Positions 21,001 to 45,000 of a DNA stretch of 64,000 nt are shown here, piece by piece. The translations under genes and the position numbers were made by a program. A model generated the notes under the pieces. That model was not told the origin of the DNA and did no database searches. It saw nothing but the letters and a program-made list of their open reading frames with translations. The stretch is taken from contig NC_135255.1 in the NCBI RefSeq assembly GCF_964204865.1, forward strand, positions 22,196,001 to 22,260,000, in the 5' to 3' direction. This DNA is from Styela clava. Its lineage: Eukaryota. Position 1 is the first letter of the stretch, and every line of letters begins with the position of its first letter.

Positions 21001-24000
21001 AATGGACAGAACATGAAAAAGCAATAAATAAAATACAACACTGGATTGATGATCATTTGGAGGTGATACTTTTTTTTATTACATTTGCAATCTTTGTAAT
21101 TTGAGACGACTAAAGACTGCGGTAATTTATCTTATTTTAAAAATATAATATCTCAAGTCCTGGCAACTTTACTTAATTCATATGCTTATGTTTATCTTGT
21201 GTATTGTAATAGTATTGTATCATGGCCAAATTCAAAGTTAACCATTATTCATTTATCAGAATCTTCACAAGCCCTAATTTAAAATAATAATTTTCATTAT
21301 TACTATACGTGCAGTTTGCATTTTTCTATATTGTGTTCAATTTTCTGTGAGCATTTAGGGAATTTTATTTCACACTAATTTTTAGACATGTCAACAAAAC
21401 TCAGAACCCGGTAATAAATCTCAAATTCAAAGAGCGCTGTTGAAACTCCAGGGTTTGGAACCAAAATTAAAAAAGAAATATTCAGAAATCAGAAGATTGG
21501 AAAAAGATTATAAAGGTGTTTATTAATTTTACTAAATGACTTATATTTTTCTTCTTTATATTCCAATGTATGCCACCCGTATGTGTATTATACAAAGTTT
21601 GCTCAAAATGGGTGTCCTAGTGTCTTTATGTGGACCAAGTTAGTCTCACACATTGGGTCAATTAGCTATTACAGTATTATGAAAACCTTGTGAGTATGAT
21701 TGAAATTTGTTGCAATAAACAAAGTGCCAGACAAGCAGGAGTTTCTGCATCTTATTACTTTGGCTAAATTATCTGACATAACTCAGTCATCTCTGAATTA
21801 ATTAAATTAATGAATGAAAATGGATGAAAGCATTATTATGTTTTGTTTATGATAAATACAAAATTGAAAATGAAAGAGGCCGAAGGGCTGGAAGTTTCCA
21901 AGATTTCAACTCTTAATCTCTAACAAATAATGCAAATCATTTTTTCAGATCTTGTTGCAACCAAGAACAACAAATTCAGAGCAGAATCACCTGAGCCAGG
22001 GGTCGGCAGTTCAAATCTAGCTCGACTCAATCAAACATGGGTGATTTTAGAACACCATCTCAATCAACAGAAAAGAAATCTAAAAAAAGCTATGGAAGTT
22101 TGGGAAAGGTCAGTAATATACTAAATGTAACATACCGTGTTTTCTTAAAAATAAAACTAGGGCCTATTTTGGGGGGAAGTGTTTTATTTTCATTATCATT
22201 TATTTCATTTTTGTTCAAAATAACGGCCAAACATAGCATTTAAAACGAGTAGGTAAGATTTTTTGCTATCAGCTACGTCAAAAAAAAATTTTTGGGCTAT
22301 CGACTAGGTCTTATTTTTGAGAGAAACATGATATGTTTATTCTGTAAAGCTTTTTATGTTGATGTTACACATGTAAAGATATAAAAAATATGAAATAACA
22401 AAATGATGATGTGATTTCAATTCATTTAAAAGAAGTAGATATTAATTGGATAAACTTTATACTCATTGCTAATATATATTATTCTAATAAGCTTACGATG
22501 TTGACTACTCTTTTTACTTTTAATTGTTTATTACCTTGGGCCAAGTACTTTTAGAGTACAATAATCCGCGCATGTTCACTAAACGCTGTAAGTACTTCTA
22601 GTTGGCGTGACACAGACGTTTTTGCATATGTTATTCTTAACCCCCAACTAACTACGTCATCCAAAAATTACGTCACTACGACATCACAATCACGTCATAG
22701 AGCTCGCTAAAGAAAAGCTACGATTGCCAAAAATGGCAACTCTGCCAACGATAACGAACTCGCTAACGCCAGCGATCTCTCTCATAATCAGTATTGTCAC
22801 GACGAGAAAACGAGAGAAAAGCTTTCTTGATTTCGGGTGATCGTCTGCGCGTTTTGGACGACAATCCGTCTACTTTAACAGGCCTTATTCCGTCACAGTG
22901 ACATTGTGATTAACTAATTTTTAGATGGCATAGTCAGGTGGGGGCTAGAAATGAAATATGGCACCACAACTAGAAGTACTTGACAGTGATGGTGAACTAG
23001 CCCCCAATAATCTGGGTTAAACACAACTAACTAACTAATTCCTTGTTCCTAAATGTGCCATTAATTAGCTTTATTAGATAGATTGTAAGGTATGAAGCCA
23101 TCATTATTGTATTTCAGATTCAATTCTGTTGAGAATGTCACAACCAAACAACTTGATTCCATAGAACATTCATTACTTCAATGCTCTAAAGCTCATGCAT
23201 CTATGGAAGCCGTCGCAGCACAACTTTCCAAGCTTGAAGGTAATCACTTTTGTTGTCTCTCATTTTGATTTCTCATATTTATCTCAGGATTAAGAATTTC
23301 ATCCTGGGGGAGAGGAAAGTCAATGCTATGTCCTAATTATATTCCAACCCTTCAGGCAAAGTATTAGCATAGCTATCCAGACAATAGTTCCAGATACATA
23401 AGTCTGGCAAAGCTGTAATCAACCAACAATTATGTGAACCACTATAGCGATAACTGGGAGTTCAGCAATAGCATAAAATCTTTTCTTATGGGGTACTCAA
23501 GAAAATGTGTACTAAACCGCACAAAGTCAAATTGAAATAACAGCTTCCAAGTGTATAGACAGATATAGTGTAGAAGCCCTAATAGGGCGACAGTTACATG
23601 TTCTGTGATAAAAGTAAATAAAAAACTGTTTTCAATAAGAAGCCTTGTCATTATGGACACAAATGTGAGTGTGTTCCCACATGATAGTCCTTTAGTATCA
23701 ATTATGCATTTTAATGATATATTCTGTAATATATGTCCTCTTCACAGAACTTCAACATGAACTCAGACGACACAGTCTTCAACAACAACTATTTCAAGTT
23801 GAATCAAGCAGTCTCATTGCAATTTGTGATGTCATAACAGCAGATGATGTCAGAGGAAAAATCAACTCATTGGATGCAAGGTACAACGCAATATGTTCAC
23901 TGAGTCATACCTCTCTATGAATTTTGATGGCATTTTTCCTATTTATTCCCTTTATATTTTATTATATAAGTTAATGGGTCAGTCATTAACTGTCAGATTG

Positions 24001-27000
24001 CCAGTTTAATTTGTGTTGTGAAAAGATAGCGAGTTAGGGTGGTCAATGGTTATATTTAGAATACCTCAACATCTATTAATGATAACATTTTAGCATTTAT
24101 TGTTCTATTTTTTTTTTTTCTGTTAGACCAGTATTATATTCAATTAAAGAGTCCAGCTGCACACTAACACAAATGTATTTCTGTAACGTTTAACGATTGT
24201 TGTAAACTGCTTGTCTGAGGAAGTCTGACTCTGGTCGGACGAAACGTTACAGAAATACATTTGTGTTAGTGTGCAGCTGGACTCTTTAATTGAATAGAAT
24301 AGTCATGTTAGTATCCTTGCAGTATACGCATACGGATCCACTAGCATAAAGGCATAGAGAAAAGATAGAAAGTTAGTCTCGCGCAACCCAACTCAAATTT
24401 AGACTAGTAATAATTACCATTAAATTTGATCGCGCATGGTTCCACTCAAATGCCCTTTAATATCTCACTTTACATTCTGTACTTGTAAAATGTATATTTG
24501 TTATTGTAGAAAAATAACCTACCGGTACTATACTATGATAATGTCTATAATTAACCTAGTACCATCCCTAGTCATCGAAGCTTATATATGCTTCCCATAC
24601 ACATCTTAGATTACTCGATTTCTTTCTCAGCTTTAGTACAAGTATAAGTTTATTTTGACTCCGTAATCGGCATACAATAAAATGATTTATAAAAACAGAT
24701 AAATAAAAACTGATTATGAAATCAGGAGAGCGAAATCTCAGATAAAGTTCAAAAAGGTTTTATATTTACAGAATATGAGATGAAAGGTTTTGCCAAGAAG
24801 AAAGTGGTGCATGTTCACACACCTAAAATTATTGAATCATTTCACACATGGTCACACGCACCCACACACGACCACAGAGAAATTAGTAAAAAAAACACGA
24901 TAAACTTATAGTAAACAAAAAATAATAAAAAAATAAACAAAAAACTATTAGCCACACCATTGTAATAATTTTGTAATAGTTGCCACTGGCAAATTAATCG
25001 ATTTTTCTAATCAGGAGTGGACAGTAGTTCATTGGTTTCAATTAACTATTCTTCAATTTTCAGATGGAATGAGCTATCTGCATCTGTTGACGAACTTTTT
25101 TCAAAATATAAGAAAAGTTTAGAAGTTTGGTCAGAATATGAAAACCAATACCAACAAGCTGAAAATAAGTTGTACACTGTAAAATCACAATCAGATTCTA
25201 TTATGACATCACAAACCATGCTGGAAGATCCTCAACAATGTGAAATGAAAGCTCAGGTTTGAATTGAGATTTTTATATTACGAAAAATTTGACTATTTTT
25301 TTACAAATTAATGATTTTAAGTACGGAGTTTGTATAATCATTCGTTGATTTTCTCTGAAAAATCTTAAGTGTCAAACGTTAGCAACTTCGAATCCTGCTG
25401 AGGCTGTGGACTTCTCATTACCAGAGGTCGGTTTTGGTAACTCCCTGACCATCTCTGATTTGTACACTCTGCTGCTATAGGAGTCCATTATATGGAAGTG
25501 CCAAACTATCTGAATATGAATACTCAGATCGCCTGCTTAGACTGATAAGTGGACTAAGTTCATATTTCATTATGTGATCTCTTATTGGATTTCCATTTTT
25601 CAAGAAAAATATGAAATTTCTTATTCTATCTTAATTACCCAATTTTCTATTACTAAAACTTTTACAATTGATTTTAATTCAGGAGCTTTTGCACAGCTGC
25701 TCAGAGCTTGAAACATCTATCGCAGAGTTGTCAACATTTGGTGATGAAATTGGTCAACTGATGACTTCGTCATCAGCTGTTCATATCAATGGACAAAATA
25801 CTAGGTTTGTGTGAATTTTTTGCAAGTTCTGCTGTGTGATGTTTTAAATTTGTTTGAAATCTAGTCTCTTGACAAGCAGGTGAGAAAGAGTCTTCTCAAT
25901 TTAGAATTGCCTACCAAATTCGATATATTTAGTATAGGTGTCTGGTCAAGTAGTTCCGACATTGCAGCTTAGATATTCTAGTTTTTTGTCCGCCTGTTTA
26001 AAGTAGTACATGATATACATTATACATGATATATCTGCACTTCAAATCCTATTTGCTTTATGACTAAATAAGTGATTACTTATATAGATTCCAGAATGAG
26101 TTGTTGAGTGCCTTGTAGAAGTAGGGCAACAATTAGAACTTAATTGAGGATTAAAATGGGAATCCCATACTCACATTGAAACTTTTTATACTTTTAGGAT
26201 CGAACAAGCACTGACAGACACAAATCATCATTTACAAAACACAATTCACCATTTGAAGAATGAAAAATCAAAGATTATGGATTTCAAAGAAAAATATGGA
26301 TTTCTTGAAACCTGGTTGAATGAGGCTGAATCTGCTGTAGAACAGAACGACACATCCATTGATGAAAAAGTTATTCAGGTTTGATTGTTTTAGTATTTTG
26401 GTTGGGCAATTGAGGCATCATGTACTGAATTATGTGAGTTTCCTGATTAAAGTTCCATGAAAACTGAATAGTCAAAAAGATGTGTACTGAACACCTTTTA
26501 CTTCATAGGAAGTTTCATGCAAACAAATGTCAGTCACTAAATGTTGGTCATGGATGACGAGGTCAAGCATACCAAAAATTAAATAGTTGGCAATCCTTCT
26601 CAGCAATTTCTTCCTGAAAATCGATCTAATGAGTGCTTAATCTTTATCATACTTTTTAAACCAGCAAATGCTAAATTGGTATCATAAGCAAGTGTTTTTA
26701 AAAATATAAAAACCAACAAACATTTTGGTATCCCTCAAAGAAACAAAATCGACTTAAGCTTGGGTTATGTTCCACAGCCACAAGTTTAAAAACAAAGTGT
26801 TATGCTGAAAAGTAATTTTGGATCTCAGGGTTGTTAGCTTTTTTATCCATCAAGAATGAAAACATTTTCATAATTATTTTGGAATCCATAAAAACAAATT
26901 CTTCTGCTGAGTATGCATTATATTATAAATATGTGTGCCTGTATAACTATGTTCATTTAAAGTGATTGGCTACTTTGCTGCTTTCATACCTGACTTTGAT

Positions 27001-36000: not shown

Positions 36001-39000
36001 TGGACGCGTCCATATTTTACGACTTTTACTCTAAGAAAGAAATACTTTGTGAAAATGTCAGGAGAACACTAAACATCATAAGTCCCAAATTTTAATTATA
36101 AAGCCCTGTCAAGAACATTTAATATTCATATATAATATGAATGTATAACCCATGTATTTGAAAATCCAATTTGACCATTATACTTATGAGCTCTACCTGT
36201 ACCTGCTCGCCGTCCATGTTCTAGCCTCTGCATTAAACTGTTTTGATAGTTGTGAAGTAATTACGAATATGGGCGCAATCGCTTACAATTGTTAGGTTTA
36301 ACCTGCTAGTTATTTAGAACGACAAATTCAGGCTATTATGCTCGTAATTCAGATTCAATGGAGCCCTCAAAACAATCCGTTCCGCCAATTTAACTAACTT
36401 AACACAAATGGTTGATTATTAGAATGCATATGAATTGTATTTTTGTGTATGCGAGTAAGCCATGCTTTTGAGTAATGTTGTCAATATTGCCGCGAAAAAA
36501 ATATTGTCGCATTTTCGCCGAGTTGCGATCCGGGTCCAAGTTAACGTGGAATCGAATTTTGTGTGACTGATTTTTTATTTAGTCAAAGTTGTCGTTAAAT
36601 TAATTTACCACAAATGGCAGAATAAATTGACACTGTACAATGCGGATTTAAGACACCTCATCTGACATGTACTTTTGAGTGAGTGCTTGTGTATCTCTGT
36701 AAGCCGATATCAGGCTATAAGTCAATTTTATAATAATGTAGCACGAAACGATGCTTGTCCGTGGTGCCTCAACAAGCCTGAGACCGAGGTACGCCTATTT
36801 GCTGAATGCGATATAACAAATAAATTAATGGCAACAGCAATTTGGACATGGTCACACAAAAGCCCAAATAAAACACTACCTGCTACGAAAGATATAACAA
36901 TAAATTATAGATTTGGACAAAGTATAGAAAAGGACGAAGCGAACATATTAATCTTTTCATTGACAACAATGAAACAAGCTATATGGCAAGCAAGAAACAG
37001 GAAAATATTCGGCAACCACAAACTAAGCTCCAAGCAAACATTCAACAGCTTTAAAAGACAGATAATATGGCGATATAATGTTGAACAACAGAGGCGAAAG
37101 GGGGGTAATGACCTCAAGCTCGAAAGAATAATGAGGACAATTGAACTACTCGGGGAAAAACAACTACGAGACGTGGGAATAACGTAACGGAGACGATACC
37201 GCACAAGATGTATTAAAAACCCGAATTCGATTTGAAAATACGTATGTCAAAAATGTAAAAAAAAACGTAAAAGTTACCAAAGTGAACTAAAATATGTTAC
37301 TGTTAATCAACGTGACGTATTCCCCATGAATCGATACTTTTTCTCATACTGTAGAATTGCAGAAACTTTGCTAGTCATAGCAGACGACGATGTAACTTGT
37401 AGAATTGTATTTAAACGTTTTTACGTACTGTAAACAAACTCGCAAGCACCCCATTCAAACAACATAACGTAGTCTGCACACCGATATCGTATATAATTGA
37501 TTCCAGTGTCTAGATATTTTTCCCATACCGTAGTATTACCGAGCTACAACTAGGCTCGGAGTATAGATACGTATACATTGTGATTAGCATAGAGACATGT
37601 GTGCGTGGATCTAAACTGTAATTTGAAAATGATTCCCCATGCAATGTCGACAACCGAAATCCCAACTGTTTTTGGTCTAGTATTTTATATATGTTTTTCT
37701 TCTCCTTTCTCTATGCGGTAGTATTACCAAACTACAAAGAGGCCTCCCGTGTAGATACGTATATATTGTATATTGTATGGATATATGAGTGCATGAATCA
37801 AACCCCAGAACCAAAAGAGAATCCCATGTCCTTCCTTATACATGTGCGAAAATCACATGAGATTTCGAAATATACCACAAACGGTAGAATAGAAAAACGC
37901 GCTGGTATATAAGTCCAAATGACATAATACTACCTTGAATGGATCGTGGATATAATTCGGCTCATATAAGTAACCATAGAATCACGTAGTAGAAATAGTA
38001 AAAACTATCCTCAACCTTGACGTAACCATTGATGAATATTATAAACATCAACCCCGCCCCAAAGTATATCATGTATATTCACCTAACATGAGTCTAACCA
38101 AGAGTTGCAACCCGTAATCGATTCATATATATTAATCCCTAAAGCTTAAATGCTGAAAACTGTCACGAATTAACCATAAATGCCCAAAAATGCTGAAATG
38201 AACTATGTGCAAGTAACAGCCATATAACCCGGCTGGCACGAACGACGTATTAAACGACTTGTAACCAGAATCTCAAACTGTCTAAAAGGGCAGATAATTA
38301 CTGCGTATTACTGTTACACCACTGATACACAAAAAGCGAAGGCCTACAGTTGTAACTATAACACCTGGTTGTATGACTTGCAACCAGGCTTCAGAATATA
38401 CACCCAAGACAAATACGACCTCTGAGAAGTTCGACGAACCCAGTTAAGAAGCACACTCTAACGTAGAGTAATACTCAGTGTAAATCATTTAAAAGTATAT
38501 GTTCTTTTTCTTTGTTTTTTCATGTATATACTCTGTTTGTAAAACTAATAAATATCCAGGCTATAAGTCAATTTTATTTGTTACGTTTTGATATTCTCCT
38601 GCGAGAATGGCTGCTATGGTTGGTAGATTACTGCAATAAGGCTGTGCGTCAAGCGTTTAGGTGGTTTTCGTGTCTGAGGCGTGTTTTATTATGTCTCTGT
38701 TTCATTAATGGCCAATATTTTGTTCATCGAATTCGACCATCTGCGAACCCAAAAATGAATTCCTACAGCACAATCCCAAACAGATTGGGACACCACCACC
38801 ACGAAGACTAACAATAGCTGGTCATTAACCAGCTTGCAAATAATAAGCACTCACTCAAAAGTAAAGACGAATAAACGATTGCGTTGTTCTGCCATAAGCA
38901 ATTCATTTAAGCTACCATTTATGGTGAATACGATTATAAATTTGTTTTGCATTGGAATACCTCGAATGGCTGCAGAGATAAATGAGGAGGTGAGCTGTGA

Positions 39001-42000: not shown

Positions 42001-45000
42001 TTCGAAAAAATGAGTTACAGCAAGACGTGTTGTGAAACCCGATATCTCAGTCGCACCGCGCCCCGTTAAAACCTTTTTATCCACAACCACCATATTGTGG
42101 AGATTACTTTTGTTGTACCCCTATCTATTTGAATCGAACGTCACTATTCGTTGAGGGTGTCCGAGGTAGCCGGTCCAGCGCCGTTTTAATCCATAAACTT
42201 GACTAGAAGCTCAACTCAAGCTGATCGACTACATGCCAGACACCCTCTTTCTTTAGGAAAGTTTTTCCGGGGTCACGAGCAAAGGTCATGGGTGATTGCG
42301 AAATTTCGAATTGCCAAGTTAGACCGTAACAGCTAGCGAGTCTTGTGGGTCTGAAAAGCGATTCAAGCTACGATAAATTGCTATATATGGGCTCACAGAA
42401 AAATGCTTTTCCGCAGACTTTGTACATGGAAAACGTCCCATGGGATGGGACGGCACACATTTGTATTTCCTGTGTGACACGGAAACCGTATGATTTTCGG
42501 GGAAGTGATGATAAAACATTTCGTTATGGGCTTCGTGTTCATATATTTGAGCATAGCTCTCTTGTTAGTTCTAAAAAGAGAATATAAATTCAGCATTAAC
42601 AATATACTTCGTGAAATGGCTGATGGACATATGTATAATAGTTATAAATATAAAGTTAATAACTCCGTAAATTTTGTTGTTTTGCATGTCTCTATGTACA
42701 TGTAGTCCCATTTAGCAGACGCTAAACCCAAATTTTACAATTTTTATCGAATTTTATCCCATGGATGGGATGGGAATGGGACAGATAAAATATGTCCCAT
42801 GGACAAGCCTGCTTCTGCGGCATTGTTGACCCAATTTAATACACCCTGCGACTGCTAATAGAAGTTGTGTGCAAGGTATTTTATTCTTGGACAAATAACC
42901 TGCGATGTCAACTCGGTTGAGTCTAACGCTTCAATCAGTAGGCCGCCACTGGTGTGAATTAACCAATGACATGACTCATTTACATGTGCATACTCAATGG
43001 CCCCTATATCACTTCCTTGTGTGACGTCACATACGCAGTAAGACACCGGCAGACAATCTGTCGTTAGAGATGTTGCTAGATGCTAGATAGACTGATAAGT
43101 ACAGTGTATTTTTATTGTAATTTTGTGTGACTGAACGTGACTATTAAGGCTGAGTAGCAGTGCTCCCATTTAATTAATACTTTTATTTAAAGTAGAGGCT
43201 TAAACAGGAAAAAGTTCATAAAAGTAATCACTGTGATCTAATGCCACCATTGGCAAAAGATATATACCCAGTTCAGCAGGTTGGAATTTTCTGCTTTGCT
43301 GAATTCGAGAGTTGAGAGTCGGCAAGTCATGGTGGCGAAAATTGAGAGGATCAGCTGTAAAATAGGATACTATCCCCAGTGTTGGTGGTCCTTATCAAAT
43401 TGGGGAGATACAATTTTTCTTAGCACTATTTCTGCTGCAGTGGATGGAGACTGGCGGGGCAAATAATTAAAATATTTTCATTAATGAAATAACATGACGA
43501 TTGGGAAAAAATTGTTTGGATGTGATTTTATCCTTTTTAAATAATATTCAGTGGCTAAGGGGGAATCAATAGTCTTGCCGGACACTTGCACAAATATATT
43601 TCTGTAACGTTTCGTCTGACTTCAGTCAGACTTTTTCAGGCATACGTATTTCATTTATCAGCGAAAAAAAGGAATTGCATGTGCAGTGTGGATACTATAA
43701 AATATCAACCAACTTTGTGTATTTTTAACAGTATGTCCAACGTGTGACGAGTCAGATTTCCGCCAAATTCACTTAAAATTACTTCAAAAATTCGTAAATT
43801 TAAACGACTTTTTATGTTATACCCATACGTCCCGTCCAACGTAATCATTCAGTTGTTGCCAACAACATTCCTCCTTAACTATATATGCAGACATAACTCA
43901 AAATGAATGATCAACTAATCCACCAAGATTGGAAAAAAGCTGGAATAAATGACAGTTGCATGCGAGTGAATTTAGTGACATTTTCAACAGTCTTTGTGGC
44001 CGGTGTAAGTGAATAATGCGAACTGAGAGTTGGGAATTGAGCTTGGTTAATGCGGGGCCAAATATAGATTGATTGTAATTTGTAAGCTTCAGTTGTGATA
44101 CATACTCGATTATGCCTGATCAAACACTTATAAACGACATACAGAGGTAGTGTTTCATTTAACTGCTTGTGCCATATGGCTAATGGTTTTATTCGCAGTT
44201 TGTTTTATCATAATGCATGTAGACATCCTTTTGACTTCGTCGGGATATCATGCTCGTCGAATGAGTTTATAAAAATGATAGGATGTGAAAGGAAGATATG
44301 AGAATGAGGATTTTTAGCGAGTCGGTATGAAAGATTGTTATGTTGAACTATCATGGTGATTTACTGTACTAATCTGCCAAGATTCATTGCCAATCGTATT
44401 GTAGCAGAAATTACATTCTCAAGATAATAAGTTCAACATTTTGCAGTGTTTATAATTTTAAATCCAAGGAAAAGTGAGCTATTAAGTTATGTGTATCACG
44501 TGCTAAGTACTTTCGAGCCAACAGGGGCGATATATCTTCGTTTTACTAAAACATACCAATTCAAAAATGTATTGGTAGCGGATATTATATCGGAATCAAA
44601 TTACATATCTAGTTTAGACACGTCAGAAGTGTTATGATGACGAGAGTTTCTTTATGGTAAATTAAAATTCGGATGATTAACATAAGTACCTATATTTAAT
44701 CCTATATTTCGCTCCGAAAAGGGTAGCGAGAAAAGCCTAAAAATAATAAAAAGCACAAAGATGGTATAATAGAAAAGACTATAAGTTTAATTTTATTTCA
44801 ATTGTCATCCTATTGCATATAATGTGTGACTAATAGTGACTAATATCAAATATTCAACGACTTTATCGTGACCGTTCCGATTTTTATTTCGGATTGTCAG
44901 TCCAGCCTATATAAGCAAGTTTGACCATAGGCATGTTGGCCATAATGAGTTTCAAATCTACCAATTAAGATGAAATAATTGATTTGCAAATATGTCACAA

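Follow-up and report, generated by a model that had tools for sequence, protein, structure and literature searches.

Results

A short head-to-head insertion within a probable nesprin intron

Within the window, a stretch of 64,000 nucleotides from Styela clava (NC_135255.1, positions 22,196,001 to 22,260,000), an insertion with two opposed arms is located in a GT..AG intron (23881..25063, plus strand) of a gene that likely encodes a nesprin (SYNE). The intron is delimited by spliced contigs from runs X5 and X6, which stem from two studies and whose RNA status is a tool-based guess. The nesprin assignment is based on Spectrin_SYNE1 matches in the window exons, which fall below the Pfam threshold, together with the genome's only KASH match, found on the plus strand at 22263930-22264100, 3.9 kb beyond the window. 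The initial annotation had placed the element in sense orientation in a nesprin pre-mRNA, and this holds for the orientation and the intron, whereas the identity of the host gene is likely only.

The insertion spans 24132/7-24401 and is bordered on both sides by an 11-bp target-site duplication (TSD). The left copy (24123..24133, plus strand) differs by one mismatch from the right copy (24399..24409, plus strand), which overlaps the last 3 nt of the element; if two mismatches are allowed, the TSD may comprise 14 bp. In the coordinates of the parent element, in which +1 is the first C of the hammerhead core CUGAGGA, the insertion starts with an inverted short arm (24137..24191, minus strand) that runs from +82 (+87 with one mismatch, from 24132) to +28 and terminates at the 'short' 3' end typical of the Penelope-like element (PLE) family described below. 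It is followed by a 4-nt junction (24192..24195; assigned from the sequence and family statistics), whose last base, G, replaces a parental C, and by a sense long arm (24196..24401, plus strand) that corresponds to positions -19 to +199 and contains the end of the pseudo-LTR, the hammerhead, the 5' UTR and a tail of ~112 nt. The complete copy is only ~270 bp long, is non-coding and carries one hammerhead, with its arms arranged head-to-head.

Direct comparison reproduced the perfect 55-bp inverted repeat reported previously: the reverse complement of 24242-24296 matches 24137-24191 at every position (55/55), with a mismatch upon any extension, and at 98% identity the repeat comprises 60 nt (24132-24191/24242-24301). 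Folding of 24130-24305 gave a value of -102.1 kcal/mol (z -16), which was equalled by 0 of 200 shuffles. The hairpin thus lies at 24137..24296, where it had been annotated, but the element itself reaches ~24401, ~105 nt beyond that end. Relative to its nearest copies, the sense arm displays one substitution and a 12-nt deletion near 24310 that is private to the window copy among 238 loci compared. These differences are in keeping with the recent insertion proposed earlier and suggest, at the sequence level, a copy that is young but not brand new.

The contigs that skip the intron come from other individuals, which possibly lack the insertion, so that they provide no proof of normal splicing in its presence. 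Run X1, which probably represents the assembly's own sample, contained no joint skipping the insertion, and run X14 was too shallow, with little power. Normal splicing of the intron is probable, as is neutrality of the window copy. Neighbouring intron sequence contains high-depth repeats at ~22600-22975 and 24668-24761 of the window.

A complete hammerhead motif with a poorly predicted fold

The minimal type I hammerhead motif (24211..24252, plus strand; activity putative) has all the parts originally described. A 4-bp stem I (24211-24214/24249-24252) encloses the core sequence CUGAGGA (24215-24221), a single bulged A, a 7-bp stem II including one G-U pair (24223-24229/24234-24240), GAAA (24241-24244) and the palindrome AACGUU (24243-24248), with cleavage predicted after 24248, in a GUU triplet. 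Core, palindrome and helix lengths agree with the minimal type I class, which in metazoan PLEs has a helix II of 7-8 bp, a helix I of 4-5 bp and a bulged nucleotide, according to the available excerpts of the original report (PMC4209133). A covariance search against Rfam, proposed in the initial annotation, returned no hammerhead family at E<=5. Its top matches were generic miRNA hairpins below threshold, and a miRNA identity was dismissed because these matches merely reflect the hairpin.

The genome contains 94 exact matches to the 38-nt ribozyme. Among 151 family motifs, retrieved with a search pattern that held the core fixed, variation is mostly stem-preserving, the commonest stem II change being U-G to U-A (n = 25), and no real two-sided covariation was found. 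An older relative of the pLTR/hammerhead region, 80% identical and with a decayed core, is situated elsewhere in the window (43568-43642, minus strand).

When the full hairpin was modelled, stem II formed with a probability of 0.83 and stem I with a probability of 0.000, consistent with the idea that the antisense arm blocks the ribozyme. However, the folding model yielded a stem I probability of only ~0.01 even without the arm because another hairpin competes. For a published minimal PLE hammerhead, monomer cleavage was undetectable and dimer cleavage low in the accessible sections of PMC4209133; dimer cleavage is also credited to Lunse et al., as cited in PMC6765202, and the hammerhead of the PLE known as PAc is described as showing no cleavage without protein (PMC11167929). 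Given the near-absent fold without the arm and the undetectable cleavage of the published monomer, the arm probably blocks a motif that is almost inactive anyway, and would change little. Nor is it the special 'cage' that had been envisaged, as insertions of this family routinely carry such an inverted arm as their second end.

The parent element encodes RT and GIY-YIG domains

A search of the S. clava genome yielded 92 matches, with 40 of 1,811 candidates scored, and a downstream 30-mer anchor had 179 exact matches. Paired copies flank ORFs encoding RT and GIY-YIG domains. At locus L023, a 3,713-nt unit contains a 960-aa stop-to-stop ORF with matches to RVT_1 (residues 442-626, 2.4e-10) and GIY-YIG (residues 865-949, 5e-05), both over the cut-off, which substantiates the Penelope-like origin suggested for the window copy. 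The locus comprises, in this order, an inverted short arm, a 5'-truncated copy, the full 3,713-nt copy and a tail; its partial tandem (pseudo-LTR) forms a 1,706-nt direct repeat with a hammerhead core in both copies.

The parent protein features DKG and YIDD motifs, a CX4CxxC linker at 827 and a GIY-YIG domain with an internal CxxC, EH and EHF motifs and CCHH residues. By motif only, it fits the Neptune clade, for which a CX2-5CxxC linker between RT and EN and CCHH in EN are given as defining traits (PMC8557442); a search of NCBIfam gave no match. Multi-kb tandem or inverted copies at L021, L022 and L023 are 94-100% identical to L023 by segment and have long open RT-EN frames. To judge from its sequences, the family looks recently active. 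Another locus of the same family (L024:3570-4662, C3 ~14331570-14332662) harbours three head-to-tail 360-nt hammerhead units, spanning -61 to +304, in a retrozyme-like arrangement. The window additionally contains a 173-aa open frame (36666-37187, plus strand) without a Pfam match at E<=0.05, which, by eye, we take to resemble the terminal part of an ORF from a non-LTR retroelement.

Head-to-head insertions of the family combine a short and a long end

Among the first 100 of 179 listed arms, which cover contigs C1 to part of C10 and include a few duplicates, the 3' ends lie at +75..+98 in 51 cases, at +189..+215 in 41 and elsewhere in eight, and 35 arms start at -22..-15. Both 3' ends (~+85 and +199) are upstream of the first ATG. 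We scored 149 of 234 distinct insertions, a sample partly chosen by likeness to the window, as single-armed and 85 as head-to-head. One end was unclassifiable in 36 of the 85; the 49 head-to-head copies with two classifiable ends comprised 48 short/long combinations, one short/short and no long/long combination. TSDs of 11-17 bp with at most one mismatch were detected in 39 of the 48 short/long copies and not found in the other nine, using a minimum length of 9 bp at which 2.7% of 300 shuffled or mismatched control flank pairs scored positive. For the single-armed insertions, a TSD was seen in only 12 of 149 cases.

Long tandem copies show the short end on their sense side as well, and the ends of short copies likewise bound multi-kb, ORF-bearing copies; the inner junctions vary from copy to copy. 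One whole hammerhead faces an antisense arm in 33 of 65 two-segment copies, with 16 copies containing two whole hammerheads and 16 none. The layout with a short and a long end is thus the default of the family and no special device.

Many truncated copies start 19 nt upstream of the core and often carry an extra G

The 5' ends of the copies accumulate 19 nt upstream of the ribozyme core. We counted by hand the bases preceding -19 in the first 100 of 114 listed junction rows, treating 49 rows with an amplified junction as one, merging three duplicate pairs and dropping seven untruncated-looking rows. The 42 resulting junctions comprised 26 G, 10 T and 6 A (p 1e-8 against 0.21). A scripted recount, whose loci overlap those counted by hand, found G in 20/33 ends at -19 versus 18/93 at other truncation sites (p 2e-5). 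The amplified junction, seen in 49 of the 100 rows, is distributed over C3, C4:2.0-3.4 Mb, C13:0.13-0.98 Mb and C17:18.1-19.8 Mb, with the members of a cluster often spaced 6-40 kb apart, and likely represents a single insertion amplified within a larger repeated unit.

The window copy shares the non-parental G, at 24195. A parental variant was rejected as its source, since, among the 100 untruncated copies listed first out of 172, 98 have C at -20 and none has G; two untruncated-looking copies with G are present among the listed junction rows. A splice acceptor or trans-splicing at -19 was also dismissed, since there is no AG and no shared leader. For full-length L1 insertions, an extra G has been read as a copy of the cap, and Penelope transcription in D. 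virilis is reported to start within the pLTR, from a TATA-less promoter, in the excerpts available of these studies (PMC11702581 and PMC2377424, respectively). Our counts suggest a capped start at -19, such that the G at 24195 is likely a copied mRNA cap and the short copies would correspond to strong-stop-like cDNAs.

Alternatively, the pile-up could result from stalling or slippage of the RT on a TTG repeat, with the G arising by re-copying and no capped start, a scenario that we consider possible but doubtful. TTG or ATTG precedes 10 of the 26 G junctions in the hand count, with T before G in most, and no TATA box is visible by eye ~30 nt upstream. However, the enrichment persists after removal of the TTG-preceded cases (16/32, p 3e-4), G is also enriched at -22 (6/7 cases) and at -16 (3/4 cases), both pyrimidine-purine steps, and the untruncated copies almost invariably have C at -20, as described above. 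Many of the 5' ends at -19 in the family follow short re-copied TTG/ATTG units, perhaps reflecting slippage of a telomerase-like RT.

Whichever reading of -19 holds, the cDNA of the window copy crosses +34/+35, so that its template was uncut. Ribozyme-cut RNA was rejected as a main template because the 5' ends lack the sharp peak at +35 that it would predict: 73 rows counted by hand included ~11 ends at +32, seven at +33, five at +34, three to four at +35 and nine at +40, and the scripted count gave eight at +32 and six each at +28, +29 and +35. A minor fraction of templates may have been cut by the ribozyme.

Discussion

Our results make it highly probable that the locus represents a short head-to-head insertion of an EN-bearing PLE, with the hairpin as a likely by-product of integration that would keep an already weak ribozyme inactive. 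This conclusion is based on the opposed, overlapping arms derived from the parent, the fixed 3' ends at ~+85 and +199, the TSD and a parent encoding both RT and GIY-YIG. In the mechanism that we propose, the GIY-YIG domain would introduce staggered nicks ~11-13 bp apart, and each nicked end would prime reverse transcription at a fixed internal RNA site, at +199 and ~+85. The long cDNA would cross the uncut hammerhead and reach the RNA start, likely capped, at -19, the short cDNA would halt at +28, beside stem II, and the two cDNAs would then be joined 5' end to 5' end. As the host gene is transcribed, the antisense arm would emerge ahead of the ribozyme and base-pair with its 3' half. We infer dual internal priming from the precedent of PAc, whose protein is reported to cut and extend both target strands from two internal RNA start sites that match genomic tail ends, ribozyme cleavage being unnecessary (PMC11167929). 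As to the more specific combination of capped starts 16-22 nt before the core, two fixed priming sites ~112 nt apart and strong-stop-like copies over an uncut ribozyme, we lean towards it with some reserve.

The inverted arm could also originate from fold-back or self-priming of a single cDNA or an antisense template, without priming at a second target end. Self-priming on an antisense template is the explanation of inverted junctions preferred in the accessible text of PMC3846280, and palindromic or re-copied junctions do occur in the family. We nevertheless regard this route as improbable, because the short end is fixed at ~+85, abuts a TSD of 11-17 bp and reappears on the sense side of long tandems, and because fold-back from the window junction predicts mirror starts, whereas the arms actually start at -19 and +28. 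Equally, the many copies of 200-350 bp with inverted ends and the three tandem 360-nt units of L024 might point to a non-autonomous retrozyme or a MITE-like fixed hairpin cassette, but this is very unlikely, given that the inner junctions differ in each copy, that the 12-nt deletion is private among 238 loci and that identical ends bound multi-kb, ORF-bearing copies. Finally, a host-selected switch, in which the hairpin, as a caged ribozyme or as dsRNA, regulates the nesprin pre-mRNA by way of editing, small RNAs or conditional cleavage, would accord with the sense orientation in the intron, the perfect 55-bp duplex and the intact core, yet is scarcely credible for a young copy that is nearly identical to dispersed copies and shares the default layout of its family, including the hammerhead opposite an antisense arm found in 33/65 two-segment copies.

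Under the PLE insertion model, the locus is one among hundreds of similar stubs and of little import by itself, although it serves as a warning that 'caged intronic hammerheads' are what Penelope-type integration produces by default. The family pattern, in turn, bears on the way in which PLEs form inverted ends and on the role of their ribozyme, and a young family with open ORFs provides exact coordinates, with a start at -19 and RT starts at ~+85 and +199. If the proposed capped starts and priming sites are real, the short copies would document the PLE cycle in the genome, map a PLE start site and show in vivo that integration can dispense with hammerhead cleavage. Our search of the open-access literature found no paper linking Penelope and an untemplated cap G and, by title, none on PLE twin priming.

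Comparison with known systems

Both the layout and the minimal hammerheads have been published before, and the locus is an ordinary leftover. The initial annotation had noted that PLEs carry minimal type I hammerheads and often insert with inverted terminal segments; the former was described by Cervera and de la Pena in 2014 (PMC4209133), and the latter is both documented (PMC8557442, PMC3846280, PMC2377424) and the family default here. Like the EN+ PLEs in the available portions of the last three reports, the family has a single ORF with RT followed by a C-terminal GIY-YIG domain, partial (pseudo-LTR) tandems, an inverted 5'-truncated copy at one end, a tail at one end only and a TSD, which is ~10 bp in the published elements. 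It differs from them in its tail of ~112 nt, compared with a published 30-40 nt, and in having both ends upstream of the first ATG, with a window copy of ~270 bp that is non-coding.

The hammerhead itself, known here from its sequence, resembles those in the excerpts of PMC4209133 in its 7-bp helix II with G10.1-C11.1, 4-bp helix I, bulge after A9 and palindromic helix III region, and we found no structural difference from the motifs described there. Pairs on opposite strands, including those in truncated PLEs, are frequent in that report and recur in our truncated copies. PAc Poseidon from the green anole (Frangieh 2024, PMC11167929) belongs to a different clade by its linker motif but, in the part of the study available, also shows two internal RT starts matching genomic ends and the use of uncut RNA as a template. 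Its hammerhead overlaps the start codon and its RT starts lie 111-118 nt into the ORF, whereas core and ATG are ~230 nt apart in our family. Non-LTR retrozymes are defined by head-to-tail units with a complete hammerhead each (bioRxiv 10.64898/2026.07.22.740005, as excerpted), an arrangement that the window copy lacks. L1 twin priming, as outlined in the accessible sections of PMC11702581, likewise produces inversions with a discrete TSD and an extra G at complete 5' ends. However, L1 segments usually abut within 1-10 bp, whereas those of the present family overlap by tens of bases and have two starts that are both fixed and internal.
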